A DNA stretch of 64,000 nucleotides. Source: a virus. The notes under the pieces were generated by a model that saw nothing but the letters and a program-made list of their open reading frames with translations, was not told the DNA's origin and searched no databases. Shown here one piece after another: positions 20,279 through 56,240 of the stretch. Every line of letters begins with the position of its first letter. Positions within the stretch are counted from its first letter, which is position 1. The stretch lies in the IMG/VR virus record IMGVR_UViG_3300028042_000004; one strand, 5' to 3'. The position numbers and the translations under genes are program-made.

Positions 20279-20324
20279 AAATGCCCCTAGGTGTCTTAAT
20301 TGATGTCTAGGGGCATTTTTTTTT
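20279..20324. terminator. terminator between convergent modules, strong on plus and probably bidirectional
   Basis: AAATGCCCCTAGGTGTC-TTAATT-GATGTCTAGGGGCATTT long stem followed by a T run; sits at the strand switch. Confidence 0.85.
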
Positions 20325-26300: not shown

Positions 26301-29103
26301 CTACCTCCTCATTTTTATAAGTCATCATAGCAGTACCAGCAGAATCAGTTTTATATATTTCTATAAAAGTTTCAAACATGGCACGTTTATCTCCTATAAA
26401 CTTTATACTTCCATCCACATTCTCTACGAAATAAGATTTAAATTTAGTATCTTTTCTTATAATATTAAGTAGCTTAAGTAGGTCACTAGCCCCAGTTCTA
26501 TATACTTTATTAAGAGTAACTTTGGTGTCAGTATCAAATACTGATGACAATACTGGATTATCACTTACTGAAGGAAGTTGTGCTGAATCCCCTAAGAAAA
26601 GTAATCTAGCTGCTTCATTTCTTGTATCTATATAAAGTCCTTTACTCCCATCTTCTAATGTAACATTTTCAGTAGCATATCTTTGGTATAGTGCAAATTC
26701 TGTCTTACCCATATTAGCCTCTTTACGAGTATCTATGAAAAAATGTGCTCTATATTCCCCTGGAAGAGCCATAACCTCCTCTTTAGTAAATCCTCCATAA
26801 TGTAGTTTTAGCCAGAATATATCATCCTCAGATAACATAGAACTTTCATCTATAACATAAATACCTGATGGCTTATGTGTTAGTGCTCCTTTAGGTGTTT
26901 TATAATCTCTTCCTTCATAAAACCCTCTTATTTGCTTAACCATAGATTGAGTAGTAGCTGGATAATTTCTAACCCCTTCTTCAATTAATGACTCAGCAAG
27001 AGTAACATTAGCTGAATGTGTAGGTGATGCATATGTAATATTAATATCACTATGATACTTCGCAAGGTAACGGTGCATAAACTTTATAATAGTCGTTTTA
27101 CCAGTACCTGCTGATCCTTGAATAGTAAATGATTTATTACCTTTATTACTCACAGCATGGTCTATTGCTGCCTTAAGTGCCATTTGTTGCTCTGTACCTA
27201 GCTTGTAATCTACCTCTATAGAGTTACCTTTATAGGTAAAAGTAGTCTTCTTTTCACCGCTGGCATCCTCTAAGCTTCCTTTACTTATATCCAATAACTC
27301 AAGATATTGAGCATTGAAATCAAATAATATATCAGCAAAAGATACTGAAGCGTCTTTATCTTTACTTTCAGATAGTATAGGTAAACTGAATACATCAGTA
27401 CCTAGCTTACTTACTATAAAGTCATGTTGTCTATCAAGTTTTTTAATAGTATCTTTAGATAAATTATACTTTTCTATAAGTACATCATCTACTCCATTAA
27501 TTAAGAAATATTCATAAGCAGCAGCCGCCTCTTCTAAGTTACGTGCATATTGCTCTCCTGTAAGAGCATCAAAATTTTGATGAGGGCCCACAGCAATAGA
27601 TCCTGGTTTACTATCATCTGGTCTGAACAAACTTGAAAAATGGTCGTCATGATCAGTAGGTATTTCTATTGTATCAATCGCTATTGATGTAAGATGCTTA
27701 TTATTTTTTATATCTTCATCAGTAGCAAAGTAGATATCACTCCCCTCACTGAAAGGAGATATATCAAACCCTTCCATTTCTGGCTTGTAATTCTGCATCT
27801 TTCTTGTGATATTACCATAAGTTTTTTCAGATGCTCTAATTTCGTCTAGATCAATAATCTTGGATAGTCCTTTAAACCCATCCAGCCCTATTTTATTAAC
27901 AAACACCTCTTCCATTATCTCATCCTCAGAAAAGTCTATACCAGTATCCTCATATAATTTCCTATAATACTCTATAGCATCTGGAAATTTACTATGTATC
28001 TCTCTCATTATATCCTTCTTAAGTTGAGGATTATATGTGTCTAACCATTTCATATAGAAGTGACCGAACTCGTGAAACATTGTATCAGGTGTAAAAGTAT
28101 CTAAATTAATTACAATTTCTCCACCTATTATAAAACCTTTTTGACTAGCAAAAGCATCATTAAAGTCTTCTGCTATCTCAGCAGTAGTCATAACTCTTAC
28201 CTTTAAATTAGGTATAAGATTAGAAAATGACTTTGCTACATTACCTGCTATAAAAGCCTTACTAGCTTTTGGTATACCTTTAAATTTATTCATTAAAGTA
28301 CGCTCCTCTTTTGTTAGGAAGTAGTTTAATGTATCATTATCTGTTCTCTCACTAAATGGCTTTGTATCACTTTCTACGCTATCAACAGTATCTAGAAATG
28401 ATTCAGTATCTGAAATAGTCTCACCAAATTGAGAAGACTGTATCTTTGACGCATATCTTACATTACTACCAGCATTAAGTGCTTTAAAGCTGTTTATAGC
28501 TCTACCAATAACAGCAGTATCGATAGGAACCTTTGCATGAATACTATAACCTCTCTGAAGAGCCGACATTATAAAGGTTTTAAGATATTTATCAAAGGCC
28601 TCATCAGTAAGCTTCTCACTTCTTTCAGCAAGCTCCCTCACTTTAGAGATAAGGTCCTCATCTATAACAAAATAATCTCTATCGCCGTCTACAGTATTAT
28701 CAAAATCACCGTCCTCTATTATTACCTGTGTAAAATCTCCAACATTAGAACTGTTAATCTGTCCATTATTTCCAAAATGATCGTTAACATCTTTTAAAAT
28801 ATCTGTAGTAGTACCTATGCCTGATATAAACTTAGATATAACAGGTTCACCAAATAGTCGTGTAACCTTTGATAAATCCATGTTATTAGTATTTGTAAGC
28901 ACCGCGCTTTTTATAACAGCCTTTTCCCCATTTGAGGAAATCACTTTTTTAATTGTCGCTGGTTTCCCTGGCTTTGTAACAAATTTAACAGGGTCAAACA
29001 CCTCATTAACTGTGAGCATCTTAATAGTTGATAATGCCCCGTAAGGCTTAACACTAGCAAGTCTTTGCCCTTTATTTAATTTTACAGATATATCACATTT
29101 CAT
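20323..29103 (-). CDS. giant virion (ejected) polyvalent protein: zincin metallopeptidase + Dda/RecD-like SF1 helicase + PD-(D/E)xK nuclease + hydrophobic C-terminal region
   Basis: HEFGH (28060-28074) with downstream IMEEV; GSAGTGKT (27094-27117), VIDESSM, GDSAQLPSV, AITVNKAQG, YVALSRA (25516-25536); EGTFLH...GIIDLLVID...FDYKTK...QASVY (about 24030-24630). Confidence 0.8.
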   Translation of the reverse strand: MKCDISVKLNKGQRLASVKPYGALSTIKMLTVNEVFDPVKFVTKPGKPATIKKVISSNGEKAVIKSAVLTNTNNMDLSKVTRLFGEPVISKFISGIGTTTDILKDVNDHFGNNGQINSSNVGDFTQVIIEDGDFDNTVDGDRDYFVIDEDLISKVRELAERSEKLTDEAFDKYLKTFIMSALQRGYSIHAKVPIDTAVIGRAINSFKALNAGSNVRYASKIQSSQFGETISDTESFLDTVDSVESDTKPFSERTDNDTLNYFLTKEERTLMNKFKGIPKASKAFIAGNVAKSFSNLIPNLKVRVMTTAEIAEDFNDAFASQKGFIIGGEIVINLDTFTPDTMFHEFGHFYMKWLDTYNPQLKKDIMREIHSKFPDAIEYYRKLYEDTGIDFSEDEIMEEVFVNKIGLDGFKGLSKIIDLDEIRASEKTYGNITRKMQNYKPEMEGFDISPFSEGSDIYFATDEDIKNNKHLTSIAIDTIEIPTDHDDHFSSLFRPDDSKPGSIAVGPHQNFDALTGEQYARNLEEAAAAYEYFLINGVDDVLIEKYNLSKDTIKKLDRQHDFIVSKLGTDVFSLPILSESKDKDASVSFADILFDFNAQYLELLDISKGSLEDASGEKKTTFTYKGNSIEVDYKLGTEQQMALKAAIDHAVSNKGNKSFTIQGSAGTGKTTIIKFMHRYLAKYHSDINITYASPTHSANVTLAESLIEEGVRNYPATTQSMVKQIRGFYEGRDYKTPKGALTHKPSGIYVIDESSMLSEDDIFWLKLHYGGFTKEEVMALPGEYRAHFFIDTRKEANMGKTEFALYQRYATENVTLEDGSKGLYIDTRNEAARLLFLGDSAQLPSVSDNPVLSSVFDTDTKVTLNKVYRTGASDLLKLLNIIRKDTKFKSYFVENVDGSIKFIGDKRAMFETFIEIYKTDSAGTAMMTYKNEEVAKFNREAKLAIDGHRFIQPGSTIIGYGGNGRKKVVVGANEDFDSVPNSLVYKVQTAKIIAIQRYSRISGASKFITIGITSKSDNLQRLQDRGMNNLKPVISTSILPLSMESSITHEGVTEEIIKKNKEALSKAIHKIQLEVSTKPYNDQEFHMKMAIGELLQGVDVTENVVVDAYSGDFFFGTLEDAYKNAGGNFVSFVELKKGVDYNFAITVNKAQGKGMNNPFFDLESIKNVPDKIIRDKKGRAVGSLRKSLEYVALSRAIEHIYVYGDKNTTFSNTIDAEKMALNTENAKKTVAEMADSIQEFTSNFVKTLLGVTEVPPKYETLGTNFSISDMLNDVMENGTTKSTFVDDGDIDEAMEHMSKFSVQKANIREVSNGLVNRGFIKTAPDGSIILLDSHGNMVDENGNFSGKPLKIKSLDSLENLKRIAKYLDKMKHHAEILFDVGAKPLDVVEDVVNFSNSIGKNGKGRYVLDGVELEGTTRLISEKFSSPFDIEEAAKKKVFYDTKTKLKKRYKKKGMTPDEAENKAIQVAGEYIGSRRSKDAEEEVKKIYEFKRTEGTFLHNINELYVLALNYSQEIDYGSGNKKSLTHFSEYIKKAIISGDKVALQKYFAKYFFNYLGDQQETPQYKQFRKAYEFVFNNVLTEDSGMLKDLLDNLEGFFKENIFKGIKGPVKMLPEVVIGDKELGRVGIIDLLVIDGDGALYIFDYKTKEKGKLDSWSYNKGSVRMLDEMGAYNDNAMMKASIQASVYKYILERRGFKVKGIAVAYIEADIRGTDEDKVFADKTKLRYEVKRIFKTHLKDVTADVAAYFRRVGIIKEDDNISNDAAEITALSIKGAGGVDVNTPKNIDATAEKIYSKAVNGGKGKGGNYEKIANKFGFAGKKAMSGLEVILPGNIRYTIPENIRSKEDRIAHIKDILVNRKDVAFVETNFEDVYYSLDRSEKYSKKVLGSRDEEKTFQNLLHGIDSTTHEFVKFSSNVNYGVDFKGVSFLKNKITGEVRIISLNYDDKKFIKFREGHFNILGNYISTRKLKAKYPELDNLKNTNYNLRLLKVGLMALRAKQLDPDFKVSHVLMNRDIHGDNKMPIKIDMLQLMALTKAFLTEAKAAGEVLPVFFEEALANPDIFNPDAYVPDPVAAISDYIGSIGSNRNVFNDVFKTKTARKRANALKKVIDNYDERRDYKVLLHALQELQHSLEGNFNSFEQKLQSDIWTVISNSILFVQGFNYTVNPKNTSIVQKFFFTPSTVSNKYMADFNRQITEGRAGMSAEFIAFKTEFNNLIQALADEKGISIDVMSSSLYKSSRKDVLKSLFVDPENKDKKKAFLLKAESDTNSKAEKALIRFINKSLKDFSKRSISRKSIDIKQGWLPLVKKSRMSRRSDTNFFNNALDSIKNTFSGGESLKNDIDSSDNYEKEFYVTNPFDSQLPSKNEDVDDQFNYARRKQLGLDEFMDPLVEERDSFNDIEDNIENMIDSFAVAALNVIHFKDISAFGRSMFYNIHREKGLTGENYDNVIDVLTIIQKKNIKNKESDDNNVVGEVFNTMATTAVIAGSIKQILLEAFTNPLITADNWLSDKLYGTLFGGQREFSSSSYRKAFNIISNPVGGKDKKLAEAIDLFYGFSNSDSRQMQEMMKMLEGKSIFQSKHLMYLNKLFLESWQKITMVAYMIEQGSFYAHSIDRNGMLIYDVKKDKRFYGGKDKLMQDKVREATKLKLSKEYGGLTGMPGDAYEDRQINKAYTVYDINYLKEKLVELYSSLDNSSKSMSIYYTWMAFINKMRTWIFAKMSRYFKKPVTAEENASLSRLERVDDPDAEGGYRMEWRGQAAEGILYSVFGITRMFKEEGFKALKSKNLTEVQKKNMSKLMADMFIGVVLSAAVWGMFKGLGDDDETMTETEQMFYDRFQMATGDVFMPKSLFDMAAGRGSLFIGISIITEAMHKALDAVAMTGAATTNPELDIEDVGAAYWQAASAFYGPFKSIDVGINYVDSLEE

Positions 29104-29104
29104 A

Positions 29105-32100
29105 TTAGCAGTATTTATTATTAGTAAACGTATTTTTAGCTATTATATTGTCTAATTCGTCGTTTACATCGTTAGGTATTGATATTGATTTTTTATTCAT
29201 TCTAGCAACCTTTATATCTCTAGCTATCACTGAATAATACTGAATTTTTTTGACTTCTTTACCATCTTGCATCACTTTCTCAAAAGTCTTTATATACTTT
29301 TTACCGTACATCTCAAGCACAGCTACTGCATTTGTAAGTCCAGCCTCTTTAAATTCGCGTGGGAAATTAGATACTTTATACTTTATATTTGTAACTATAC
29401 CATCATTTAGTAATCCTAGTTTAAATGTCTCACTATAGTCCTTAGCATTCCTCAATCCTACACTACCTTTAGCATCGATATATGTTCTAATAGTAATATC
29501 CTCACCATTATACCTTGTAACAAATTGCATATCATTACTAGTCTTTATTATTCTATAAGACAATCCAGATAGATCAACAGATTCAGGAAGCATATCAGAT
29601 ATTTCAAGAATAAACCCAGGAAATGAATGTATACCCACCTCTAAACCAGTGGCTTTAAAGTATTTTTGGAAAAAGTTTTTAATAATAGCAGATCCTCCCA
29701 TTCTGAAATCTTCTCTATTAGCTATAAGGCCAACACCTTCTGACCCTATTAAAGAAATTTCATCTCCTTCTTTCATACTATTCATTACTCCAAGTATATT
29801 TCCAAACATCTTGTTTCTATCTTTCTTAGCGTCTTTTGATATCCTCTTTTTTTCTACTTTCCCCATTATAGTAGGTACAAGGAAAGATGTCTTTTTAGAT
29901 TTTATACTAGATAATGAATTAGTATTAAATTTAGCTTTCTCAACTTTATCAGATGATATAAACTCCTTATATGCTCCATTCATTTTAAATCCCTCATATG
30001 ATAAAACTGCCATATTATCAGCATCCAACATCATTATATCAGCCTTTTCTTCTGTTTCCATAAGCATAGCAGTAGCAGTATCTATTCCAACATCTACAAG
30101 AGACTTATTCACAGTAAATCCTTTAACAGATATAGCTCTTATAGAATTATCAAGAAGTTTTAATTCATTCCATCTTATAATAATTTTATCTTTTTTACCT
30201 CTAGCGACAATATTTCTAGCATTAATTCTTTCTATAACATTCCCAGATAAGAATATATCCTCATCCATGTCCATAATAAGATTCCCAGGAACATCATACA
30301 GCATACCATCGTCAAGTATCATGTATGTCTCAACAGTCTTCTTTCTTATTTCTCTTGTACCATTAAATGCAAGCACTCTACCATTAGTACCAAAAGATGT
30401 TGTAAGTCCTATAGTATGTTTAGCTAATGCCAAGTCAGATAGAATACCTTCTGATATTGTAGATATCTTAGATACATCAGATACAAAGCTAATAGGTAAT
30501 GCCTCATTTGGTCCAGAAGGAACTATCCTAAAAGAAGGATAAGAAGTATTAACACCTATAACAGGCTGACCGTCAACTGAGTAAATACTGTTAACAAGAA
30601 GGGCATTAGGAGACTCTTTCTTCTTTTTCATAGCCTCTTTTTTTATTCTATTGGCCTCTGCTTTATCTGCTGCAGCTTGCTCCTCAGGAGTAAGAACTAT
30701 ATCATCACCCTCATCTACAGTGCCTTCATAGCTATCAACATCGTCCACTCCTTCAATTAAAAACTGCTGTGCCGCATCATCAAAAAAGTCATCAAAAGAA
30801 GTATTATTTCCAGAATTCTTTTTTCTTAAATATTTGACAGTGTCTTTTCTATCCTTTAAAGTACCTCTAACAATATCGAATACCTCTTTACTAGAAATTT
30901 TTAATTTAGCATAATCTTTCTTTTTAAGAGTATTTAAATAACGAGATAAGTCAAGAGATATCTCTGGGAATAACTCTACCATAGAATTCTTTTGTATCTT
31001 ACCAGCATTCACTATAAGTGAGTACATCATAAGATTCCTATACAACTCTAGATTAGCAGCATCAAGTAGCTCATCCCCAGTTTCAATCTTAAGTTCTTCA
31101 ATAGCTTCTTTTACAGTTCCAAGCTCTACCATATCTGGCTGACTCTTGTTTAGTATAGGCATATTGATTATAGAGAAGTCAGAATTTATAGGATTAACAG
31201 ATGACATGTAAGAAAATAATTTATTATCTGTACCACCAGATAAACTTTTAATATTCTCTATACTTGTAAGAAAGTAGTCTTTAAAACCAGCTACAAACTT
31301 TTCTCTTCCTCCATTGGAATCAAGGTTTACATCCATTTTATTACCATTATCTAGGAATATTTTTCCAGTATATGGTTGTCCGTCTATACCAGCTTTTAAG
31401 AACATCATTACTTGTCCCTCTGATATATAACTATTAAGTCTACGATATACGTCCTCAGTATGTCTACCTCCAGAGAACTCATATAGATATTTTACTATAT
31501 GGGATACAGCAGGAAGTATTGTATTTTCTACTTCGAACACATTCACAAACAGTGCAGCAGATTGTGTATGTAAGAATATAATCATTTCTGGATTAAGTAT
31601 ATGTTTTCCAGGAGATGATTTAGAAGTAGCTAAAGGTACCTTAGATATATCGTCATCTATAACAGCATCATACAGTTTATTATAGCTGATATTCTTTCTT
31701 ATTCTATCCATCTCAAACTGCTCAGGCTTAAAGTTCTCATTAAGTCCTTTAACAGATCTAAGATTATGTATTTCTGCACTAACCTCTAGTAGTGATAAAA
31801 TTGATTTAATATAATCAGAGCTAACTGATACACCTTTCATTGTAGAGAAAAGACTCTTACTTAGGAATATACTTTCAAAATCAGATCTTCTCTTTTTAAG
31901 TGCCTCAATTACTTTAGACATTTGAGGATCATGTAGGAATTCTACAATAACTTTTGGATCATATCCAAGAACCATCATAGTAGTAACTATAGCGTTTGTG
32001 AAACTGTTTGCTCTAATCTTACTAAGAATAAGTTCTTTCGCATTATCCACAGCAGAAGACATGAACTGAGATTGTGTATCCACAGTAGAATCCTTACCTA

Positions 32101-35100
32101 ACATATAGTAATAAATGTCCAACAGGGCCTTATCATTGCCCTCAACCATATCCATAACAACATCTCTCAGATATCTGTCAGTTTTTTTTATATTAATTCC
32201 TAATGTATCATTTACAGCAGATAATTTATTCTTACCACCATGGGCCTCTATCTTACCAACAACATCTTTTATAGCAGCTTTAAGCACTATCCTATCGTCT
32301 TCAGATAACTCAACTTCTTGTGCAGAAGTAACTATTTTACCTAAATCACCGTTCTTTAGATTATTACGTAAAGCATTCTCATCAAGATCAGCAAACGTAG
32401 TCCTAGAGTGTACTTGATCCTTACCTCTAAGTTTGTACTTCACAGTATGGGTGAAGTTAAAAGGATCTATTTTAAGCCTCTTTCTTTTTACAGAGGTAAT
32501 GCTTTTATTAAATATAGGAACGATAATGTTTTTCATCTCACCATCCTTCTCATATCCTTTTATAATAAGTACATCAGTTACTCCGTCTTTCTTAGTCTCT
32601 TCTACAAGCTGTTGTATACTCTTCTCATCCTGCATAAAGTCATCACCAACTATCATAACCTTAGGATAATCAGCATTAATCTGTAAAGGTATAGGGCCTC
32701 CAGTATCTTTTTTGTATGAAAATATATTTAATACTCCCTCCTTAGTAAGATGACTTAATGGTTTTTTATCATCCATCTGGTAAAGTAGTATTGTAGCCTT
32801 CTCACCAGTTTTTACATCGTGTATATCAGTAATATTACCTTCAATCTCTGCATCCCCAATCATTTTAGAATACTTCTTATCCCAAATAACTTTAGCCCCA
32901 TGGATAGTTCCAATCATCTTGATTGTAGTAGCATATACAGCAATACCATCCTTACCTTGTAATGCCTCTTCTTCTGCAAGCAGTCCAAAATAAAACGATT
33001 CTCCATCATATACATTAAAGTCTATCTTTTTTATATCCCCTAAATCAGCCTCTTCTTCAGACTTTTTAAGTTTACCAGCAAGATCAACTAAAGCATTCAT
33101 AATAGTAAAACTCATCGCAGTATTAATCTCAATAGCTGCGTCTACATTTCCAAAAGCACTTTGTATACTATCTCTAACAGCATTTAAAAGATAATGATCA
33201 TATCTCTTTATTATAGAGGTATTGAATCTTCTTCTGATGCTCTTCTCTTTTTCTGCATCAATTCTCTTTTTCTCTACTTTCTCAATCTCTATAGCCTTAT
33301 CATCCTCGTTCATATCATAAGACTCTATAAGTGCTATACGTTCGTCTATAATACTATTCACAGTCTTTATATATGAGCTCACCTCTTCATTAGATGCATT
33401 CATTTTGTCAGTGAATTCTTTTAACATTCTATTTCTGTTAAAAACACCATTATCATAGAATCTGCTAGAATCTAATATAATACCGTCCTTCATGATACTG
33501 GCTGTAAGTATATTCAATAAGTCAATATCAAAGTCACCACCTGTAGTAACAAGGTGAGATGTAGAGGCCATTGAACTATTTCCTTGTGCATTCAGGAACG
33601 CTACAACATGTGCATTAAATCCAGACTGCATTGATTGCCCTGGAGTTCTTGATGCATTAACATCTATTGCTTTAACAAATGATTTCGCCTTATCAATTAC
33701 GTATTTAGCTGAAGCATCCTCTAGTATAGAGTTTATTTTTGATATATGCTGTGCAGTAACTACTCTCTCACCATCAACATCTATCGCTATATTCTTTATA
33801 ATTCCTAATATATTGATAACATAGTCAGACCCATCTCTAAGAAAAGCAGATGAAAATCTTCCCATAAGGGCATCAAAATTTATATCCTCATTCACTCTTC
33901 TAAAAGCCCCTGCTTTTTTAGTAAATTTCAAATTCTTTCTAAAATATCTTACAGCACTCGCTATCTGCTTTTCAGTATCTAGTGAGAAACCTATGATATC
34001 GTTTATAATAACACCGTCCTTACTAAGTCCAAATGCAGATGCCATATATGCTGGTAGTATAATTTCTGGTGGTATAACTTCCCATATTGGGTCGCCATTA
34101 TCATCTCTCTCTGTAAGTATTTGATACAGAACAGCTTTAGCCTCCATTACTTGTTTCTTAGTAGTCCTTTTGTTTCTCATCAATCTATGTAGATTTTTGA
34201 AAGCACTCATCTCTTCTATAGAAGATCCCTCACTATTTTTATATTGGTACCATCTTAAACTATACTTCTCTTGAACATATGGCTTTATCATACCTGCAGC
34301 TATCATACTCTCTATAGCAGATTCGCTGTAATTCTCTTTCATATGCCATATATAAGCCACATTCTTCTTACCGTTAAAGTCTATATCAACCATTGTAGAA
34401 GGGTTCTGAGCATTAAGCTCGTCCATTGTTTTATATGGACCATCTATATCTGGATTAACATCTGGTGTGATTATATATGATATTGTAAGTGATGGGTCAT
34501 TAAGATCTACTCTAAATGCCTCTAATACCTCAGTTCCTGTATGTGATGTAACTTTTACAAGATCAAGAGGTGTTATGAATCTATTGATATTAATTATACC
34601 TTCTTTATCTCCTCCTACAAATGTAGCAAGAACTGCACCATCCTCTTGTTTTCTAGCCCTAAGGTTAGTTCTCATAAATACTCCTCTAGAGACTCTTCCA
34701 CCTCTAAAGTTAAATATCTTAGCAGTCTTATGTGGAGTAGATACTACTGCCTGGAAACCACTATGTCTTATCTTCACTGTCTGCTTAAACAAACTAGAGC
34801 GTAATGTAGAAAGTACCCTTTTTTGAACAGCTGGGGAATCTAGTGATAGACCAGAATCCTTTATAACTTGCTCAATAAGTCTACTATCAGCGTTCTCATT
34901 AAAAGCCATCTCCGCTATTTGAGTAATACCCTCACGTATAACACTATTAAATAGTACAATTTGCTCAGAATTAAGTCCTTTAGTAGTAAGTTTACCACTA
35001 TCAAATCCTTCTATAATAGAATTGAACAGCTCTGGAGATAATGATATCGCCTGAAGTTCTCTTGCTATATTAGAAAAGTCTTTAGCCAGTGCATGTCTAT

Positions 35101-38100
35101 GGATATCCGCTAATGCAGCCATAGAGTTTTGTATATTAAATGAGGCATCCTCAGAGTTACCACCAGCAGATATGGATCCAACAAGCTGTGTAAGTAGCGC
35201 TAATGCAGACCCACCAGTCACATCGTACTCATGTGCTTTTGATAGTAATTCATAGTTATATTCATGCTTTGTATTATAAAGATTGAATTTCTTTTTATTA
35301 GTATTATTTTGATTAAATACGTCATCAAAATCATTATAAGCATAATTACCATTTTTTTGTACGGTTTCAAATGTAACATAACCAACAAAACTATTAAGAT
35401 TTACTGGGTACTTCATAAGCACATCAAGTATCTGCTCCCATATATCTGTCTCACTTGTATGATTACCCTTTTTAAGGAAATGTGTGTAAAGCTCATGAAG
35501 ATTTTCAAACCTATCATAACCATCTTCACCTACTTCCATCCACGGCTGTTTAAAAGGCACAGCTGTATTCATTGATTTGAATGATTCCCAAAGTTCAACA
35601 CCACCAAGCTCTCTCATTTGTTCAAAAGAGAAAGGTATCTGATTAGATTTCTTTTGAAGTTGTTGTCTAAACCTGTTGTAATTGAAAGATGTAGTCAATG
35701 TTTTAAGAGCTTCATAATTATTTGTATGGAATGCTCCAAACTCCTTACCTCTAGCATAGTCCATAATAAGATGAAGCAGAGGGTGCATATATTGAACACC
35801 ATCAGAATTGTCCTGATTAAAGTTCATATGATTAATAAGGTTAGTATACGAAACTGGGTCAGTAACAAGTAGTGACGGTATCATATCAGGCATAACAATA
35901 TGAGTATCTTCTTCATTTTCTGTAAACATATCAGATAAAACAGAAGGCTCTAATCTAACTGTGCTCACCTCAACTGAAGAGTATTCTGCTATTTTACCAG
36001 TAGACGCAGGATTATCATATCTATTTGTATTTATAGATCTGTTATATGCGCTCATAATACTTTCAGCTAATGCCATAACAAATGAACTGTCCTCTATCTC
36101 AACAGTACCATTAAAGACCCCATTTATAGTATCTTTATTAACTGTTATTTCTCTATTTCCAACATTCATTGTAAAAGAATAATCACTTCCATCTTCACTG
36201 TATGTGAAATAGCTACCATTCTTCTTTACAAGTATGCCAAGTGCGGCCAACTCTCCAAGAGTCTTTCCTTCAAATTTTGGGAAAGTATATATAAGCTCAA
36301 GCTCCAGATCATCGCTATCTGGATCAGCATCGTCCTCAATAATCTCTACATACTTAACAGCGTTATTATCTGCTGCTTCTTCTTTTAATCCTATATAAGT
36401 ATCTGATTGTAAGTATCTTGTCCCGTTAGTAGTATTAGACTGCCCTCTCTTATTTTGGGCTTTAATCATACCATCTACTTCTTCTTTACCAGTAGTAACA
36501 CCACTATCTATATCAGCATAGTAAGCGTGTATAGACTTATGATTTTTGTTATATTTTCCTGGGAAAGCTGATTCATCTCCCATAGTCATTACTTTTGCTG
36601 CATGTCCATAAACTGTCCCAGCAATGAACATTCTAACAAATATCTCATCAGTAGCGGCCATAAGACCAGACTTTTTACCACCAGCTCTAGATTTAGCATC
36701 TGAGTACTCTTTCTTAATAAGTTTACTATCTACATTCTCTTTAATAAGAAGAGCTTTATATTTTTCAATAGCCTCATCAAGTATCTTCTCACCATTATTC
36801 CTAAAAGCCGCTGCACGTACCCCTAAATGTGGCTTTATATAGATATGATCACCTCCAGATAGAGTTATTAAATCAGCTTTAACTTCAAGTTTAGACTCGC
36901 TATACATAACAAGCTTTTTATTCAATTTAATAATTTCAAGCTTTTCATTTATAAGCCTAGACATATCTCCTTTAGCATTACTAAAGTCTGTATCCATAAG
37001 ATGAGCACGAAGCTCTTTAAGTGCATCTACTCTTGCTTCAACATCTTCTCCGCCTTCTTTTCTTATAGCAGCCTCAAGCATTTTAAAATCACCCCCTATA
37101 AATAGTTTAAGGTCCCTTATGATTATTCTCTGCATGTCTTCATTCTTCTGTGCAAAGTAGTCAATATAGATAGCCCTCATTTTCTCTTCAGTACCTTCTT
37201 CCATAGAGAAGATATTAAAATCATCTAGCTGCATTTCAACAAGTTGTGGATTACTTTTATCCGCATACCCTAATGGCTGTGTAGCAAATCTACTACCAAG
37301 CATTTTCTCTCTTGCTGGCATTTGTATAAATCCACTAAGCATTTCAAATTCAAGTCGTTTACCAACTCCCCATTCAGAAACCTTCAAAGTCTCTCCTCCC
37401 TTAGTCATAGGAGTTTTAATGAAATACCCTTTAATCTCTGCTCCTGGTATAACAGCATTATCCATAAAAGGATTAAATCTCTGCTCCACACCTGCTTTTT
37501 TAGCTGCTAGCTTATACTTATCTAGCTGGATATTCATTGATCCATTTCTATTTGGTAAAGATGTAGCGGATCTTTTATTTCCACCAACTACAACACTTCC
37601 CATAATCTCTGGAGAAAACATTGGCAATATGTATGCAATATTATCAGCAGACATTACATCAGTGGGCTTCACATTAGCATAGTCATTATGTTTAACTTCA
37701 GATATGTCTTTATCTCCTAAGGACTTTGTATATTTTACATTACCTTTATTAGATCTACCAGTAGTCTTTATATTGTAAGCGGCAATTTCAATGATGTCTG
37801 AAAAAATCTTTAAGAATTTTCTTTCAACATCTTTTCCTTCTTGCTCTGTATCGTTAACAAATTTATAGATGTCAGCAGCTAATCTACCAAGACCTAGGCC
37901 TTTCATAAATCTTTGTGCTTCTTCTATTGTATCAATATCTTTAAGTTTCTTGCTACCATCATTACCTGTAGGAAGCTCCTTTTTAGCCTTATTTATAGGA
38001 CTATTAAGCAATGTGATCACATTATACCTAATATGTATTTTAGACGCAATAGAGTCATTTGTATACCCTTTATTAGTAAGGAATAAAACAAGACTATCAT

Positions 38101-39865
38101 CTAATATATACTCACTCTTTGTAAGTGTGGCAGTGACAGTAGCTTTTGTACGCCCATCTTTCGACTCTAGATATTTTTCTTGCATCTTTGAAATAAGAGC
38201 AGAAGCGAAAGCGTTTGCTATGGCATCATTTCTCTTATCATGTCTTGATAGAAGAGAGAAAATTTCTTTACCATCAACAGTCATGGACTTGTCATTAAAC
38301 ATATGAGCAAGCAATGAATTAGCTATATAGGCATGTTTTCTATTTCCTTTCTCTGCTATCTTCTGTAGACGGGCCTTTAAAGATTTTACATCTGGTTCTA
38401 TCTGTCCCATATGTGGAGCAATCTCATGGAAATCCTCCATTGTAAGTCTTTCCTTTGTATAGGTATATACCTGTCTAGTACCATCATCAGTAGTAATAGT
38501 AGTAGTATCTACACCTTTAACAAGAGATATTATATTATTTATAAACGCGGTACCTTGATCTAGCGTATTAGCTGTATCATTATCACCACTCCATCCTTTA
38601 CTCGCATTGTTCTTAGTATTCACAACATATGAAGGAATAGGAGAAATATCTACCATATCACCATCAATGTTCATTATATAATAAGCATCATCATTAACAA
38701 CATGATATACAGTATTAGGTAGCACATCAACTCTATTTAGAAAATCTGCGGTATCTGATTTTACAGTCTCAAAATCTGCTACAGCATCAAAGGCCCCGTC
38801 AACATATTCATTCTCTATGATAGGAGAAGATCCTTTCACAGCCTCAGCCATGGCATCTAGATTTATTCTAATACCATCATCAAGAGCTTCAAAAAATACT
38901 TCAGCGCTCTCTCCATACCCATCAGTATTATCTGGTTTCTTATGACTTCTAACAACTACTTTAATTATATTTTTTAATACAAAATCAAACTCATTATAAA
39001 ATACATCATGGAAATACCTACTTTTTAAAGCATCGCTAAGAAGTAATTGAGCTTTAAGATCATCTGGTATATTACCATCAGCATCTGCCTCATTATATCT
39101 AGCCACAGCTTTTTTAGCTATTTTCTCTGCATATATTTCATTACGTATCTCATTCATAATAACATTCACATCTACTACAAACCCGTTACCCTCTTTAGAG
39201 AAATCAGCTAGTCTATCAAGTACCTTATCCTGCACAAAATTTACAAATTCTATACCTATACTAGACATTCCTTTAAAGTATACACTAAGGAATGATGCCC
39301 AGTTATCAGATGAGCTATCGGCTACACCATTGGTAAGTTCTAGAAGATTTACTTTCTTTCTAGCTAAATCTGACGAAGAGTCGTCTATAGTCTCTTTAAC
39401 TTTTACAGATGTAGTAACCTCTGCAGCAACTTCTTCATCAGCAAATATGTCAGTATCAAATGAAGTAAATGCACTAAACGCATCATCCCCAAAAGTACCA
39501 TCAAATGTTGCTACATCCAATGTTTCTGCGACAGCCTCTTCACTCTCAAAAGATTTAACCATCTCTTCGAATGTAGAAAATTTACGAGAAGTCATTGCCT
39601 CTATATTACTATCAACATCTATCCCAAGGGCCTCTATACCCTCTTTTAGATTTGTAGATAACAAGCTCCCCTCAACAAGGTACTCATTTTTTATAATCTC
39701 CCCATTAGCTTCCCATCCCATGGCATAGAAAAACACACCCTCTTTGATACTAACATCTGCGGCAGATATAAGTGCCTTAAGTGATTCCTCCTTCTTTGAA
39801 AATGGTATAGGAGCAATTGATAGTTTTGCAATATCGTCTATCAGATTTAAAGTACATTTTTTCAT
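29105..39865 (-). CDS. crAss-like virion-associated single-chain DNA-dependent RNA polymerase
   Basis: Catalytic loop GGDFDID (DFDID at 33521-33535) preceded by SRTPGQSMQS; AVDNAKE motif downstream; middle gene of three giant ORFs as in crAss-like phages. Confidence 0.88.
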   Translation of the reverse strand: MKKCTLNLIDDIAKLSIAPIPFSKKEESLKALISAADVSIKEGVFFYAMGWEANGEIIKNEYLVEGSLLSTNLKEGIEALGIDVDSNIEAMTSRKFSTFEEMVKSFESEEAVAETLDVATFDGTFGDDAFSAFTSFDTDIFADEEVAAEVTTSVKVKETIDDSSSDLARKKVNLLELTNGVADSSSDNWASFLSVYFKGMSSIGIEFVNFVQDKVLDRLADFSKEGNGFVVDVNVIMNEIRNEIYAEKIAKKAVARYNEADADGNIPDDLKAQLLLSDALKSRYFHDVFYNEFDFVLKNIIKVVVRSHKKPDNTDGYGESAEVFFEALDDGIRINLDAMAEAVKGSSPIIENEYVDGAFDAVADFETVKSDTADFLNRVDVLPNTVYHVVNDDAYYIMNIDGDMVDISPIPSYVVNTKNNASKGWSGDNDTANTLDQGTAFINNIISLVKGVDTTTITTDDGTRQVYTYTKERLTMEDFHEIAPHMGQIEPDVKSLKARLQKIAEKGNRKHAYIANSLLAHMFNDKSMTVDGKEIFSLLSRHDKRNDAIANAFASALISKMQEKYLESKDGRTKATVTATLTKSEYILDDSLVLFLTNKGYTNDSIASKIHIRYNVITLLNSPINKAKKELPTGNDGSKKLKDIDTIEEAQRFMKGLGLGRLAADIYKFVNDTEQEGKDVERKFLKIFSDIIEIAAYNIKTTGRSNKGNVKYTKSLGDKDISEVKHNDYANVKPTDVMSADNIAYILPMFSPEIMGSVVVGGNKRSATSLPNRNGSMNIQLDKYKLAAKKAGVEQRFNPFMDNAVIPGAEIKGYFIKTPMTKGGETLKVSEWGVGKRLEFEMLSGFIQMPAREKMLGSRFATQPLGYADKSNPQLVEMQLDDFNIFSMEEGTEEKMRAIYIDYFAQKNEDMQRIIIRDLKLFIGGDFKMLEAAIRKEGGEDVEARVDALKELRAHLMDTDFSNAKGDMSRLINEKLEIIKLNKKLVMYSESKLEVKADLITLSGGDHIYIKPHLGVRAAAFRNNGEKILDEAIEKYKALLIKENVDSKLIKKEYSDAKSRAGGKKSGLMAATDEIFVRMFIAGTVYGHAAKVMTMGDESAFPGKYNKNHKSIHAYYADIDSGVTTGKEEVDGMIKAQNKRGQSNTTNGTRYLQSDTYIGLKEEAADNNAVKYVEIIEDDADPDSDDLELELIYTFPKFEGKTLGELAALGILVKKNGSYFTYSEDGSDYSFTMNVGNREITVNKDTINGVFNGTVEIEDSSFVMALAESIMSAYNRSINTNRYDNPASTGKIAEYSSVEVSTVRLEPSVLSDMFTENEEDTHIVMPDMIPSLLVTDPVSYTNLINHMNFNQDNSDGVQYMHPLLHLIMDYARGKEFGAFHTNNYEALKTLTTSFNYNRFRQQLQKKSNQIPFSFEQMRELGGVELWESFKSMNTAVPFKQPWMEVGEDGYDRFENLHELYTHFLKKGNHTSETDIWEQILDVLMKYPVNLNSFVGYVTFETVQKNGNYAYNDFDDVFNQNNTNKKKFNLYNTKHEYNYELLSKAHEYDVTGGSALALLTQLVGSISAGGNSEDASFNIQNSMAALADIHRHALAKDFSNIARELQAISLSPELFNSIIEGFDSGKLTTKGLNSEQIVLFNSVIREGITQIAEMAFNENADSRLIEQVIKDSGLSLDSPAVQKRVLSTLRSSLFKQTVKIRHSGFQAVVSTPHKTAKIFNFRGGRVSRGVFMRTNLRARKQEDGAVLATFVGGDKEGIININRFITPLDLVKVTSHTGTEVLEAFRVDLNDPSLTISYIITPDVNPDIDGPYKTMDELNAQNPSTMVDIDFNGKKNVAYIWHMKENYSESAIESMIAAGMIKPYVQEKYSLRWYQYKNSEGSSIEEMSAFKNLHRLMRNKRTTKKQVMEAKAVLYQILTERDDNGDPIWEVIPPEIILPAYMASAFGLSKDGVIINDIIGFSLDTEKQIASAVRYFRKNLKFTKKAGAFRRVNEDINFDALMGRFSSAFLRDGSDYVINILGIIKNIAIDVDGERVVTAQHISKINSILEDASAKYVIDKAKSFVKAIDVNASRTPGQSMQSGFNAHVVAFLNAQGNSSMASTSHLVTTGGDFDIDLLNILTASIMKDGIILDSSRFYDNGVFNRNRMLKEFTDKMNASNEEVSSYIKTVNSIIDERIALIESYDMNEDDKAIEIEKVEKKRIDAEKEKSIRRRFNTSIIKRYDHYLLNAVRDSIQSAFGNVDAAIEINTAMSFTIMNALVDLAGKLKKSEEEADLGDIKKIDFNVYDGESFYFGLLAEEEALQGKDGIAVYATTIKMIGTIHGAKVIWDKKYSKMIGDAEIEGNITDIHDVKTGEKATILLYQMDDKKPLSHLTKEGVLNIFSYKKDTGGPIPLQINADYPKVMIVGDDFMQDEKSIQQLVEETKKDGVTDVLIIKGYEKDGEMKNIIVPIFNKSITSVKRKRLKIDPFNFTHTVKYKLRGKDQVHSRTTFADLDENALRNNLKNGDLGKIVTSAQEVELSEDDRIVLKAAIKDVVGKIEAHGGKNKLSAVNDTLGINIKKTDRYLRDVVMDMVEGNDKALLDIYYYMLGKDSTVDTQSQFMSSAVDNAKELILSKIRANSFTNAIVTTMMVLGYDPKVIVEFLHDPQMSKVIEALKKRRSDFESIFLSKSLFSTMKGVSVSSDYIKSILSLLEVSAEIHNLRSVKGLNENFKPEQFEMDRIRKNISYNKLYDAVIDDDISKVPLATSKSSPGKHILNPEMIIFLHTQSAALFVNVFEVENTILPAVSHIVKYLYEFSGGRHTEDVYRRLNSYISEGQVMMFLKAGIDGQPYTGKIFLDNGNKMDVNLDSNGGREKFVAGFKDYFLTSIENIKSLSGGTDNKLFSYMSSVNPINSDFSIINMPILNKSQPDMVELGTVKEAIEELKIETGDELLDAANLELYRNLMMYSLIVNAGKIQKNSMVELFPEISLDLSRYLNTLKKKDYAKLKISSKEVFDIVRGTLKDRKDTVKYLRKKNSGNNTSFDDFFDDAAQQFLIEGVDDVDSYEGTVDEGDDIVLTPEEQAAADKAEANRIKKEAMKKKKESPNALLVNSIYSVDGQPVIGVNTSYPSFRIVPSGPNEALPISFVSDVSKISTISEGILSDLALAKHTIGLTTSFGTNGRVLAFNGTREIRKKTVETYMILDDGMLYDVPGNLIMDMDEDIFLSGNVIERINARNIVARGKKDKIIIRWNELKLLDNSIRAISVKGFTVNKSLVDVGIDTATAMLMETEEKADIMMLDADNMAVLSYEGFKMNGAYKEFISSDKVEKAKFNTNSLSSIKSKKTSFLVPTIMGKVEKKRISKDAKKDRNKMFGNILGVMNSMKEGDEISLIGSEGVGLIANREDFRMGGSAIIKNFFQKYFKATGLEVGIHSFPGFILEISDMLPESVDLSGLSYRIIKTSNDMQFVTRYNGEDITIRTYIDAKGSVGLRNAKDYSETFKLGLLNDGIVTNIKYKVSNFPREFKEAGLTNAVAVLEMYGKKYIKTFEKVMQDGKEVKKIQYYSVIARDIKVARMNKKSISIPNDVNDELDNIIAKNTFTNNKYC

Positions 39866-39871
39866 ATTGTA

Positions 39872-42800
39872 TTAATTACATTTTAATATTAAATCAATTA
39901 AGTTATCTATTGTGGCCATATATCCTTCAGTGGATCTTGCCTTAGTAGCATCTTCTTTCATAGCATATGCTATATCTTCCATAGATGCTGTCACGTCTTC
40001 TATATAATCATCTGGCCCAATAACAGAGGCAAGCTTTGTATGGAAGTCATTCATTATTTTCTTTCTAACTATAGAAGTCTTTATGAAATCCTTTTCAACA
40101 ATTGCTACCATATCTACAGCATCCTCATTCACAAGAGCATCTCTCATATCTGTAGTAATAGTATAGTCAGTAGAAAGACTTATTTCTCCAGCAAAAACAG
40201 CTGCAGAATCTATCTCAGTCTCTATATTATTGTTATTAGTTTCTTTAACACTATTAAGAGCCTCTTCCATTTTCGTTACAAGCTCTTTCATTTGTGCTAG
40301 TTGATCACTAGTATATCCTTCATAATTACCTTCCTCAACCTTCTTAACTGTGGATATCATAGCCTTTAATGACTTCTCTACAAACTCTATAGCAGACTCT
40401 GTTCCCATCATCTTCTTAAGTTGCTCTACTGTACCAACACCATACTTATCTGAAAACACAAAACTTGCTTTCATAATTTCATTCATAGGTATTTTCTTGG
40501 TATCTGTCTTCACAACTTTTTTCTTTATAATCTTTTTTCCAGGAGCAACAACAATATTTGGCGATATATCCCCTATTATACTTCTTTTCAAAGCAAACTT
40601 AGGATCATCTATAGATACTGTAGATGTAGATAAGTCTTCATCTAGACCAGAAAATGCTTTACCAAGTTCTATAAAAGGAGTATTCAATGTACCTTCTAAG
40701 ACCGTGAATTTAAACCTAGTTCCTGTCTCTGCATACAGCTTATCCAACGCTGTGAAGAAACTGTCTGGCGATGTTTTACCAAGAATAACAGATAAATTTA
40801 AAGCATAACTGTTATATGTTCTTATATACACTCTATTACCATCATCTAAATCAGCTACAGCTGTTACTGCAAGATCTGTTAAGAAATCAATAATATCTTT
40901 ATCTCCTCCTACAACAATTCTTTCTAGTATCTCTATAGCCTTTTTTCTCTGTCCTTCACCAACCTCTTTTTCAAAAGACTTTCTAACCTTATCAATAAAC
41001 CCTTTACCAGCATCTGTAAGATTATCATACTTATCTGAATCAGCGTCATAATAATGAAGCATAGCTAACTGAGCTACATAACTAGCCATATTTGGCATAG
41101 AAGGCACAGTTGCACCAAGATCATTGTATACAGCCATTATATCCTTAGCTTTCACATCAACTTTGAAAGGCATAAGTCCTATAGTAACTTCTACGCCATT
41201 AAGAACGAATGTTATCTGCTTATTATTGCTTAGAACATTTTCTTTTTTAATAGCGTCTTTTACCTCTTTAGACTCTAGGTCAACATTAGGACTGTAGGTA
41301 TATAGATAGAAATATGCTCCTCTATCAGATGCATCTGTATTAACTTGATATGGCTTCTTACTGAAAATAACTCCAGCCTCTTTCAGCTCTTTAATACTCT
41401 TACCCTTTTTACTACCGTTTGCTAGATTAATTCTGGATGCTCTCATTATTATTCCATCCTTATCTAACTTACTAGTAATAAATATTTGATTATCACCAAC
41501 AGTCTCTACACCATCACCCTTCTTAAATACTCTGTCTATCTGTTTAGATAATTCCAGTACTGTTCCAGTAGCTTTACTAAATATAAAAGCAGATACAATA
41601 TACTTCTTTCCTCCAAATGTAGCTACTAAATAAGCACTCTTATACTTACCTTTAATTGCTACAACCTGATATGAGGTGGCCCCCATAGTATCTTTAATTT
41701 TTTTCAACGTAGCTGCATCAGCCACTTCTATTTTATTAGTAGCCATGTAGCTTTTAAAATCAGTTGAAAAATATCTTGGGTTAACATCGGCAGTATATAC
41801 CTGCCCTTTTCTAACTCCTTTTTCTATATCTATAATATAACTATCAAGTGTATTATCGCTCCTATTATATAAATGCGCCCCTTTTCCTTTCTTTCCTTTT
41901 TTCTTAGCGGGAAATAGCTCATTCACTAGTTTAAGTGCTACGGCTGCATACTTTCTTCTTTTCTCCATCTCCTCATTAGTGCCAACATAATTGTCTTTAC
42001 TATTAAGAATACTGTATAAAGATTTTCTTACCTCTGTATAATTATCAGACCCAATATCTAAATATAATAAGAACGCATCAAGTCTTTCTTTCTTTTTATC
42101 AATAGAAGTTTTAGCACGTAATGTATTTTTTGCTTCTTTTGCTAAATTTAATAGGGCATTAACAACAGAATTAAACTCATATCTATTTATAAGATCGTTA
42201 AAATGGTCCACAAGTTCTCCACCAACTGTAAGAGTATCCGCATCTCCTTTAGCCATTTTCTCCAGCTCAGCTATTACAGCATCTATTTCAGCTAATGTCT
42301 TCCCTTTATTTATAAGAAGATTGAAATCACTTATCATATTATCTGTAGGATCAATTGCTGGTAATTTAGTAGCAGGAAAATCTATGTTAACAAACAATGG
42401 TCTAAATACATCCATAAAATACTTGAAGTCTACTGTTACAGCATAGTTCTTAGTAGTATCAAATGTATTAAGCTCATTCACAAGTGTAGAGAAAATATCA
42501 TAAAATGCAGTCTCTTCATCCTCACTTAATAATAAGAATCCTCCATCAAGCATTTTTATTATATAAGCAAGCTCCTCAATTTTTTTAGCTACTGCTGGGT
42601 CCTTAGAATCTCCCTCATAATACTTTTTAAATGAGCTTCGTAAAGAATCATCAAGTTCTAACTTCTTTCTTTTAGTTTCTGCGGCTTCTTTATTATTAGC
42701 CTCCTCCTTAGTCATAAGATATCCTTCAGCCCTAGAAATAACTCCAGTAGAGAAATCAGCCAATGATTTAGAAGGCATCTTCTTTCTTGCAAAATTCTCT

Positions 42801-51754: not shown

Positions 51755-51785
51755 CTGAAAAATTTATTTTGTACGTTACCTTTTC

Positions 51786-51798
51786 ATATAATACTAAA
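51786..51798 (-). promoter_or_regulatory. putative phage late promoter motif TTTAGTATTATAT, copy 1
   Basis: 13/13 identical to 56222-56234; intergenic, 31 nt upstream of the ATG, just downstream of a terminator. Confidence 0.5.
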
Positions 51799-51805
51799 AA
51801 TAAAT

Positions 51806-51831
51806 GAAAAAAGCCCCCGTATGGAGGCCTT
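51806..51831 (-). terminator. Rho-independent terminator after the 1293-aa gene
   Basis: Minus strand AAGGCCTCC-ATAC-GGGGGCTT-TTTT. Confidence 0.75.
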
Positions 51832-51856
51832 AATCTATCTAGAGTAATTATTATGT

Positions 51857-55738: not shown

Positions 55739-55759
55739 ATCGATTATTTATAATTAAAC

Positions 55760-55797
55760 ACAAAATCCCCTAACTCAACGCATTGTGAGAAGGGGTG
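55760..55797 (-). terminator. imperfect hairpin, possible weak terminator or RNA-stabilising stem after the 117-aa gene
   Basis: Minus strand CCCCTTCTCA-CAATGCGT-TGAGTTAGGGG-ATTTTG. Confidence 0.45.
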
Positions 55798-55822
55798 AGT
55801 TGTATTAAAGAATTAGTTTGTT

Positions 55823-56176
55823 TTATGCTTTCCCTATGAAAGACCCACCTTTTCTAAAAACTGGTGTTCCTCCCTCAGCAGGTGCTCCTTCTGGTGGTGC
55901 TCCTCCTTCAGCAGGTGCTCCTCCTCCACCGCCCATAGCAGCAGCTTGTTCCATAATCATTGGTGCAAGAGCCATTCCTAACTCCATAGCAGCTTGTTGA
56001 TCTCCTTGTGTAGCAGCTTCAGCTAAAGCAATCAATTGCTCTTCTTGGCCTCCGCCTCCGCCTTCTGGTGCTCCTCCTGCCTCTGGTGCAGCTGGTGCCA
56101 TTTCCTCTGGTGGCATTGCTCCACCCTCTTGAAATTTTAATGTATTTCTCTTACCGTATTTACTAAGATATCCCAT
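55823..56176 (-). CDS. small Pro/Ala/Gly/Glu-rich putative internal virion protein
   Basis: 117 aa; KFQEGG at the N-terminus and FRKGG at the C-terminus flank a short helical core and low-complexity arms. Confidence 0.65.
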   Translation of the reverse strand: MGYLSKYGKRNTLKFQEGGAMPPEEMAPAAPEAGGAPEGGGGGQEEQLIALAEAATQGDQQAAMELGMALAPMIMEQAAAMGGGGGAPAEGGAPPEGAPAEGGTPVFRKGGSFIGKA

Positions 56177-56221
56177 ATCCTTATTTTTTAAATATTATTA
56201 ATTAATTCAACTCTTTGTAGT

Positions 56222-56234
56222 ATATAATACTAAA
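56222..56234 (-). promoter_or_regulatory. putative phage late promoter motif TTTAGTATTATAT, copy 2
   Basis: Identical to 51786-51798; 45 nt upstream of the 117-aa gene ATG. Confidence 0.5.
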
Positions 56235-56240
56235 TTTATT

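Follow-up and report, generated by a model that had tools for sequence, protein, structure and literature searches.

Paired terminal cysteines at the inner ends of three giant virion proteins of a divergent crAss-like phage: putative inter-protein disulfide tethers

Three consecutive giant genes, labelled A, B and C, were analysed on the minus strand of a stretch of viral DNA of 64,000 nucleotides (IMG/VR virus record IMGVR_UViG_3300028042_000004; hereafter the window). Open reading frames (ORFs) were taken from a six-frame listing of the window. The products of A, B and C are predicted, from phi14:2 and crAss001, to be cargo that is packed in the head and expelled into the host. We found that the three proteins contained almost no cysteine (Cys) apart from one residue at each of the four inner ends, which are the C-terminus of A, both termini of B and the N-terminus of C. 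Comparison with relatives indicated that these Cys are selected, specific to inner ends, independent of gene adjacency and lost together when genes are fused. The reading that we favour, and consider probable, is that they are putative inter-protein disulfide tethers which would make the cargo a pseudo-polyprotein for ejection.

Cysteine content of the three giant proteins

The genes and their Cys codons were as follows (aa, amino acids; SF1, superfamily 1).

39872..49420, minus strand: gene A, 3182 aa; giant virion or cargo protein with a P-loop, Walker A at residue 1631
29105..39865, minus strand: gene B, 3586 aa; assigned by sequence as crAss-type virion RNA polymerase
20323..29103, minus strand: gene C, 2926 aa; HEFGH zincin-like motif, Dda/RecD-like SF1 helicase, PD-(D/E)XK nuclease
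39878..39880, minus strand: TGT codon of A Cys3181; proposed partner, B Cys4
39854..39856, minus strand: TGT codon of B Cys4; invariant in the alignment with two relatives
29108..29110, minus strand: TGC codon of B Cys3586; proposed partner, C Cys3
29095..29097, minus strand: TGT codon of C Cys3; kept in relatives

Positions are given below as plus offsets from the N-terminus and minus offsets from the C-terminus, −1 being the final residue. A contained a single Cys at residue 3181 of 3182 (−2). B contained two, at residue 4 (+4) and at the final residue 3586 (−1), and C contained one at residue 3 (+3). Together, the three proteins had four Cys in 9,694 residues (0.04%), none of them internal and all within four residues of an inner end. 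A previous sequence-only reading had arrived at this number and had called for a computational count. The script reproduced the number, the positions and the codon coordinates, and no additional internal Cys turned up. A, B and C are thus Cys-suppressed in the manner of phage ejection proteins, with a Cys content far below the proteome average. The six-gene ejection operon to which they belong (20323 to 57404) contained the same 4 Cys in about 12,150 residues. The remaining window genes had 0-1.2% Cys, mostly 0.3-1.2%, and two replication-side ORFs were also Cys-free. B and C opened at the earliest possible start codon of their ORFs, and M1, K2 and C4 of B were invariant in an alignment with two relatives. 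This meant that the N-terminal Cys were genuinely part of the proteins.

Conservation of the terminal cysteines

Two close relatives were compared, with 54% and 42% identity (loci L001 and L002), and both had all four terminal Cys and no internal ones. The flanking residues, codons, spacers and relative junction reading frames differed from those of the window, and the C-terminal Cys of A was retained within a different sequence context. Distant homologues of B were collected by a hidden Markov model profile search of 1.84 billion cluster representatives, and proteins of at least 2000 aa were kept (n = 49). Cys was present among the first 8 residues in 46 of the 49, among the last 8 residues in 47, and at both ends in 44. 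Internal Cys was absent from 38 of them and amounted to 36 in 168,843 residues (0.02%) over the whole set. Most exceptions were incomplete gene calls or fusions. The same pattern was observed in metagenomic lineages, including a TARA Oceans contig.

The pattern was also found in cultured crAss-like phages, as listed here.

crAss001: A is gp47, single Cys at −3; B is gp50, Cys at +5 and −9 plus one internal; C is gp49, single Cys at +5
phi14:2: A is gp78, single Cys at −1 (final residue); B is gp77 (the published gp66 polymerase), Cys at +3 and −2; C is gp76, single Cys at +3
DAC15: A, Cys at −3; B, Cys at +5 and −1; C, Cys at +4

In the case of phi14:2, the three proteins had 4 Cys in about 5,400 residues, every one at an inner terminus. 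A tally was then made over 26 genomes, including crAss001, phi14:2, DAC15 and p-crAssphage, in which a Cys within 11 residues of an end was scored. Cys was present at 72/72 inner termini and at 0/39 complete outer termini (Fisher p = 7e-31, a value that is overstated because the genomes are related). The control set comprised 164 ORFs, 200-1299 aa long, drawn from the fetched loci as well as the window. Among these, 3.0% had Cys in the first 8 residues and 9.1% in the last 8, and the overall Cys content was 1.01%. The terminal Cys pattern, hereafter the Cys rule, was far beyond chance. The expectation of the sequence-only reading that Cys would be found at the four inner termini and not at the two outer ones proved true in the close relatives and in every crAss-like phage examined. 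The late genes of cr113_1, cr7_1 and cr130_1 (L016, L018, L021) were full of in-frame stops under translation table 11 (38-148 per giant gene), as would be expected if stop codons are recoded there, a phenomenon known from some Crassvirales. The Cys rule was also obeyed in these three genomes.

The strand of gene A was informative. Gene A is encoded on the strand opposite to B and C in crAss001, DAC15 and cr116_1, and the pattern persisted there, with A ending in Cys. Since the pattern was kept in this arrangement, nucleotide signals at the gene junction were not its cause. The comparison indicates that the Cys rule tracks protein order, not gene adjacency. The previous statement that Cys occurs only at ends facing an adjacent giant gene was right about the inner ends; the adjacency of the genes did not hold in these three phages. 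An origin as a by-product of nucleotide signals at tight gene junctions (start context, coupling or read-through), or by chance, had some appeal in the window, where three of the four Cys codons lie within AAATGT, which embeds ATG, and the genes are spaced by 1-6 bases. However, the signals are refuted by the phages with A on the other strand, codons, offsets, spacers and junction frames differ among relatives, and chance does not give 72/72 against 0/39. We regard this origin as practically impossible. Joining of the genes by read-through or frameshift was rejected as well, since junction frames differ among relatives and the spacers contain extra stops.

Gene fusions as a natural experiment

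Fusions of neighbouring proteins were examined for the fate of the junction Cys. A and B were fused in nine genomes (L007, Fpv1, cr1_1, cr118_1, cr10_1, cr113_1, cr50_1, cr7_1 and cr130_1). In all nine, the N-terminal Cys was absent from the fusion, its C-terminal Cys was kept, and C retained its N-terminal Cys. B and C were fused in three Intestiviridae (p-crAssphage, crAss002 and cr11_1). In these genomes, A ended in Cys, and the fusion started with MSC and had no Cys at its C-terminus. The A-B fusion proteins of Fpv1 and L007 had a single Cys in 4401 and 4237 residues, respectively, so their fused junction was certainly Cys-free. No Cys was found near the mapped fused junction of cr1_1 and cr50_1. 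The protein cr130_1 gp79 (5801 aa) was an A-B fusion that obeyed the Cys rule. A triple A-B-C fusion, which would be expected to have no terminal Cys, was looked for and none was found. Fusion of the three proteins in some phages has been reported in a preprint (bioRxiv 10.1101/2020.03.07.982082), and the known fusions indicate that covalent continuity in A-B-C order is tolerated.

Both Cys of a junction were therefore present when the junction was split and both were absent when it was a peptide bond, and the other junction kept its pair. This presence and absence by pairs is what direct pairing of the junction Cys predicts. Pairing of the A C-terminus with the B N-terminus, and of the B C-terminus with the C N-terminus, is well supported by these sequence comparisons. 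The head-to-tail order A-B-C, as proposed by the sequence-only reading, was supported by both the conservation and the pairwise loss on fusion.

Two other arrangements of the Cys were weighed against the fusions. B has two Cys and A and C have one each, so that B might be circularised by an intramolecular disulfide between its N- and C-termini, with A paired with C. This is contradicted by the joint loss of Cys on fusion, as the remaining Cys in the A-B and B-C fusions would lose their supposed partners, and we consider it very improbable. Alternatively, the terminal Cys could anchor the cargo in the head through a third component, such as the portal, an inner capsid protein or another cargo protein. 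Many inter-subunit disulfides are used at the portal vertex and tail of crAss001, namely in the portal-vertex protein gp57 and in the tail hub and ring proteins (PMC10172136). Lone C-terminal Cys with no obvious partner also occur in p-crAssphage gp47 (−2) and crAss002 gp30 (−8). Nevertheless, such an anchor would not predict Cys at the inner ends only, when no outer terminus of 39 had one, and it would not predict the loss of Cys by pairs on fusion while the other junction keeps its pair. Independent anchoring of the ends is contradicted by this joint loss, and a third-component anchor is judged unlikely.

Two observations on individual genomes concerned the ends and the integrity of B. In crAss002 gp33, the B-C fusion (L011, NC_055828; 17088-17190), residues 33-35 were MSC, as at the starts of p-crAssphage gp44 and cr11_1 gp66. 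Translation of gp33 probably begins 32 codons downstream of the annotated start. In cr116_1 (L026, MT774389), B appeared to be split, and a true gene fission creating a new Cys pair was considered and rejected. An insertion of approximately 840 bp was found at 17600-18470 inside the catalytic motif, after GSDFD, and it carried a Cys-rich ORF of 215 aa. Homology to the unsplit polymerases restarted at residue 2 of the following ORF. In all likelihood, a self-splicing intron that carries a gene of the homing-endonuclease type has inserted into the codons of the active site.

Nature of the link between the proteins

We put forward the following steps, that is, the disulfide chemistry, the timing of its formation, the pre-docking, the ejection order and the release by reduction, as hypotheses. 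A, B and C would be docked non-covalently end to end when they are packed. The C-terminal Cys of A would then bond the N-terminal Cys of B, and the C-terminal Cys of B the N-terminal Cys of C, by disulfides. Because the cytoplasm is reducing, the bonds would form only after release of the particle, once the filled particle meets oxidising conditions. The three products would thereby become a polyprotein assembled after translation, a single thread of about 1 MDa running from N- to C-terminus. Such a thread could be drawn through the narrow tail with its parts in a set order. In the cytoplasm of the host, thioredoxin-type reductants would cut the thread into free subunits. The near absence of other Cys fits disulfide links, since an extra thiol could scramble them. 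Packaging stoichiometry, which the sequence-only reading had suggested might be set by the disulfides, would need prior non-covalent docking because no disulfide forms in the reducing cytoplasm during head filling. In the A-B toxins, such as diphtheria toxin and the clostridial neurotoxins, a single interchain disulfide holds the chains together during membrane translocation, and its reduction in the cytosol of the target cell liberates the active chain. The toxin chains are unrelated proteins that arise by nicking of one polypeptide and not from separate genes, and there is no head-to-tail concatenation of giant proteins. They are a functional analogy only to the proposed A-B-C chain.

Several points weighed against disulfide tethers. 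The head is filled in a reducing cytoplasm and many hosts live in the anoxic gut, so the bond may be partial in nature, and the disulfides of crAss001 were seen in aerobically purified particles (PMC10172136). The Cys offsets varied from +3 to +8 at N-termini and from −1 to −11 at C-termini; such variation would fit flexible tails and would define no interface. At the AB/C junctions of Suoliviridae (L013, L014, L015, L016, L021), the C-terminus carried HC and the N-terminus of the following protein CPN, which could hint at a metal site or a family-specific interface. One homologue, P0040 (locus L008), had the N-terminal Cys and no C-terminal one; its contig stops before the next gene, and it was left out of the tally. 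Co-folding of A 2903-3182 with B 1-280 gave a score of 0.00 with a pLDDT of about 34; at these values the folds themselves are uncertain, and the result weighs neither for nor against the tether.

The nature of the bond was considered in the light of these points. The paired Cys might be joined by a metal ion bridge (Zn, Fe or Cu) or by other thiol chemistry of the persulfide or thioester type. The covariation with fusion is silent on bond type, a metal bridge can form in the reducing cytoplasm at assembly whereas a disulfide cannot, and the His beside the C-terminal Cys and the CPN of Suoliviridae would suit it. However, there is only one Cys per end, a conserved terminal His, Asp or second Cys was not seen across the 49 homologues, and the distance of the Cys from the end differs by as much as 10 residues, which would be unusual for a defined metal site. 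We consider such a bridge unlikely, though a little less so than the third-component anchor. It could also be supposed that the junction Cys act transiently, in docking or recognition during co-assembly or packaging or as processing signals, and that the mature virion has no covalent link. The compartment of assembly is reducing, and recombinant phi14:2 gp66 alone was an active polymerase according to the preprint, so that the link would be unneeded for catalysis. Against a transient role, a single thiol is a weak recognition element, and the Cys is nearly universal while the surrounding residues are unconserved, which points to thiol chemistry and not to a binding motif. This role is rather improbable and slightly more doubtful than the anchor. 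The disulfide tether is therefore the reading that we retain as probable.

Three further candidates were rejected. A split intein was dismissed because the Cys, at 1-11 residues from the ends, are too close to them for intein halves of approximately 100 and 35 residues, and the flanks are unconserved. A lipoprotein lipobox did not fit, since the Cys at residues 3-8 comes right after the start Met without a hydrophobic signal sequence. CaaX-type prenylation was ruled out by the Cys position.

Comparison with known ejection systems

Virion packaging of the polymerase has been demonstrated by mass spectrometry for phi14:2 (bioRxiv 10.1101/2020.03.07.982082) and crAss001 (PMC10172136) only. In crAss001 virions, gp45, gp46, gp47, gp49 and gp50 were detected in this way (Bayfield et al. 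2023, PMC10172136). According to the same paper, passage through the tail requires partial unfolding of the cargo, and the exit order probably depends on how the proteins are packed and interact with one another. That structure did not resolve the cargo proteins, and neither a cargo disulfide chain nor the cargo cysteines were mentioned; the term cysteine is absent from the main text, apart from the carbamidomethylation of 'cystine' given in the methods (PMC10172136). In our analysis, crAss001 gp47, gp50 and gp49 followed the same terminal Cys rule as the window, and disulfide staples are present in the same particle.

Suppression of Cys is known from the ejection proteins of Schitoviridae (N4 gp50, gp51 and gp52; DEV gp71, gp72 and gp73), where it was explained by transit through the disulfide-forming periplasm (PMC11445570). 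Our count for N4 (L020, NC_008720; 10524-23524) was consistent with this report. N4 gp50 (3500 aa), gp51 (644 aa) and gp52 (150 aa) had 0 Cys in 4,294 residues, and the N4 primase at the same locus had 1.1% Cys. The report and this count showed that a Cys-free background is a known property of ejected proteins. However, the N4-type ejection proteins are without Cys even at their termini, whereas the crAss-type proteins keep exactly one per inner end. The N4 polymerase is a single chain of an unrelated fold class, and it shares with the crAss-type polymerase that it is giant, ejected and nearly Cys-free. What appears to be new here is the paired junction Cys, and what was known already is the Cys suppression in N4-like ejected proteins.

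The fusions of the RNA polymerase in Crassvirales have been read as a polyprotein that is probably cleaved, as stated in the preprint of Drobysheva et al., which cites Yutin et al. 2018. These fused polyproteins have the same modules in the A-B-C order, as two or possibly one polypeptide. Our interpretation differs from the polyprotein view in that the split versions would be re-joined through the terminal Cys. Cysteine was not mentioned in the phi14:2 preprint (bioRxiv 10.1101/2020.03.07.982082), and full-text literature searches gave no description of junction terminal Cys pairs.

Identity of the genes and layout of the window

The assignment of B came from its catalytic motif, profile comparison and gene position. 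Other features of the window were as follows.

33521..33535, minus strand: DFDID catalytic motif, B residues 2111-2115
49424..57404, minus strand: three upstream virion genes of 776, 1293 and 387 aa, Cys-free by script count
20279..20318, no strand: hairpin with a 17-bp stem, flanked by an A-run and, on the opposite side, a T-run; terminator-like

The DFDID motif of B was invariant in the alignment of B with its two close relatives (three sequences). We take a DFDxD motif in a double-psi beta-barrel to be the mark of a crAss-type virion RNA polymerase (phi14:2 gp66-like). In hhalign, the B profile of the window lineage matched the polymerases of phi14:2, crAss001, DAC15 and p-crAssphage with 93% probability (E 3e-7), and the match spanned 219 columns around the catalytic motif. 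BLASTP of B against crAss001 gp50 gave E 6e-4 in a small database. Gene B is found in the terminal part of the virion module, flanked by genes for giant virion proteins and opposite the replication module with PolA, an SF1 helicase and RNR, which occupies the plus-strand half of the window. A layout like this one is also present in phi14:2, crAss001 and p-crAssphage. On this sequence evidence, B is assigned as a crAss-type virion RNA polymerase and the window as a very divergent crAss-like phage. The term crAss-like is used here without implying membership of the order Crassvirales.

The phi14:2 polymerase gp66 (GenBank locus tag gp077) resembles B as a giant single chain with a DFDID loop whose gene lies in the terminal part of the virion module, with a giant virion protein encoded on each side. 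It has 2180 aa against the 3586 aa of B, and B had no BLAST-level similarity to INPHARED phages. Neither megablast nor tblastn gave a match there, and a scan of IMG/VR with the alignment of the catalytic region found no relative. Close relatives of the lineage numbered only two among 5.8 billion proteins. PHROGs and Pfam gave no matches for A and B, nor did NCBIfam for A, and the search of PDB sequences with the three-sequence B profile gave none. Among the accessory domains, HExxH, an SF1 helicase and a PD-(D/E)XK nuclease are carried by C in the window and a P-loop by A, whereas the zincin motif of Crassvirales lies near the C-terminus of A. This suggested that modules were shuffled among the three giant proteins while the terminal Cys rule stayed.

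The three Cys-free genes upstream of A are probably further ejected cargo, because the genes at the same position in crAss-like phages (phi14:2, Fpv1, cr1_1, cr118_1, cr50_1 and L007) are also Cys-free. A sharp boundary of Cys content was observed within the virion module at 49424-57404 of the window and at the equivalent positions in L005, L007, L012, L013, L014 and L017. The upstream protein of muzzle or stabilisation type had 13-34 Cys (about 1-1.8%), and Cys was absent or nearly absent from the two to four genes that followed and from the giant genes. Cys-free status may predict the virion genes for ejected cargo.

Single C-terminal Cys were also observed outside the three giant proteins. 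In p-crAssphage gp47 (L004, 5588-8161) and crAss002 gp30 (L011, 6393-8066), the next gene was without a visible N-terminal Cys partner. These lone Cys could form a homodimer or a link to another component. The window also encodes, at 59282-63235, a tail-like protein of 1317 aa (weak PHROG tail match) with Cys at −2 and eight internal Cys. Its terminal Cys may be due to chance or to a structural tail disulfide as in crAss001. At the other end of the giant genes, the hairpin separates the operon from the convergent replication module, and its form suggests a bidirectional terminator at which the giant-gene operon would end.

Implications for crAss-like phages

The structure paper on crAss001 posed the question of how folded enzymes of several hundred kDa to 1 MDa are stored, ordered and expelled through a narrower tail channel. 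A covalent head-to-tail tether would be a concrete and cheaply testable mechanism for the ordering and ejection of this cargo. The Cys rule may also be of practical use, as it flags genes for ejected cargo, gives the order in which the cargo would be joined, corrects start codons, as in crAss002 gp33, and separates real gene fissions from intron-interrupted genes, as in cr116_1. Gene fusion and the proposed disulfide staple would be evolutionary alternatives for the same link. Among the members of the supergroup are the phages most abundant in the human gut. For the supergroup as a whole, the chances seem to us evenly balanced that the giant products are stitched by their terminal Cys into one covalent thread, evolutionarily interchangeable with gene fusion, which would order about 0.7-1 MDa of enzymes, pull them through the tail and be dismantled by the reducing cytoplasm of the host.

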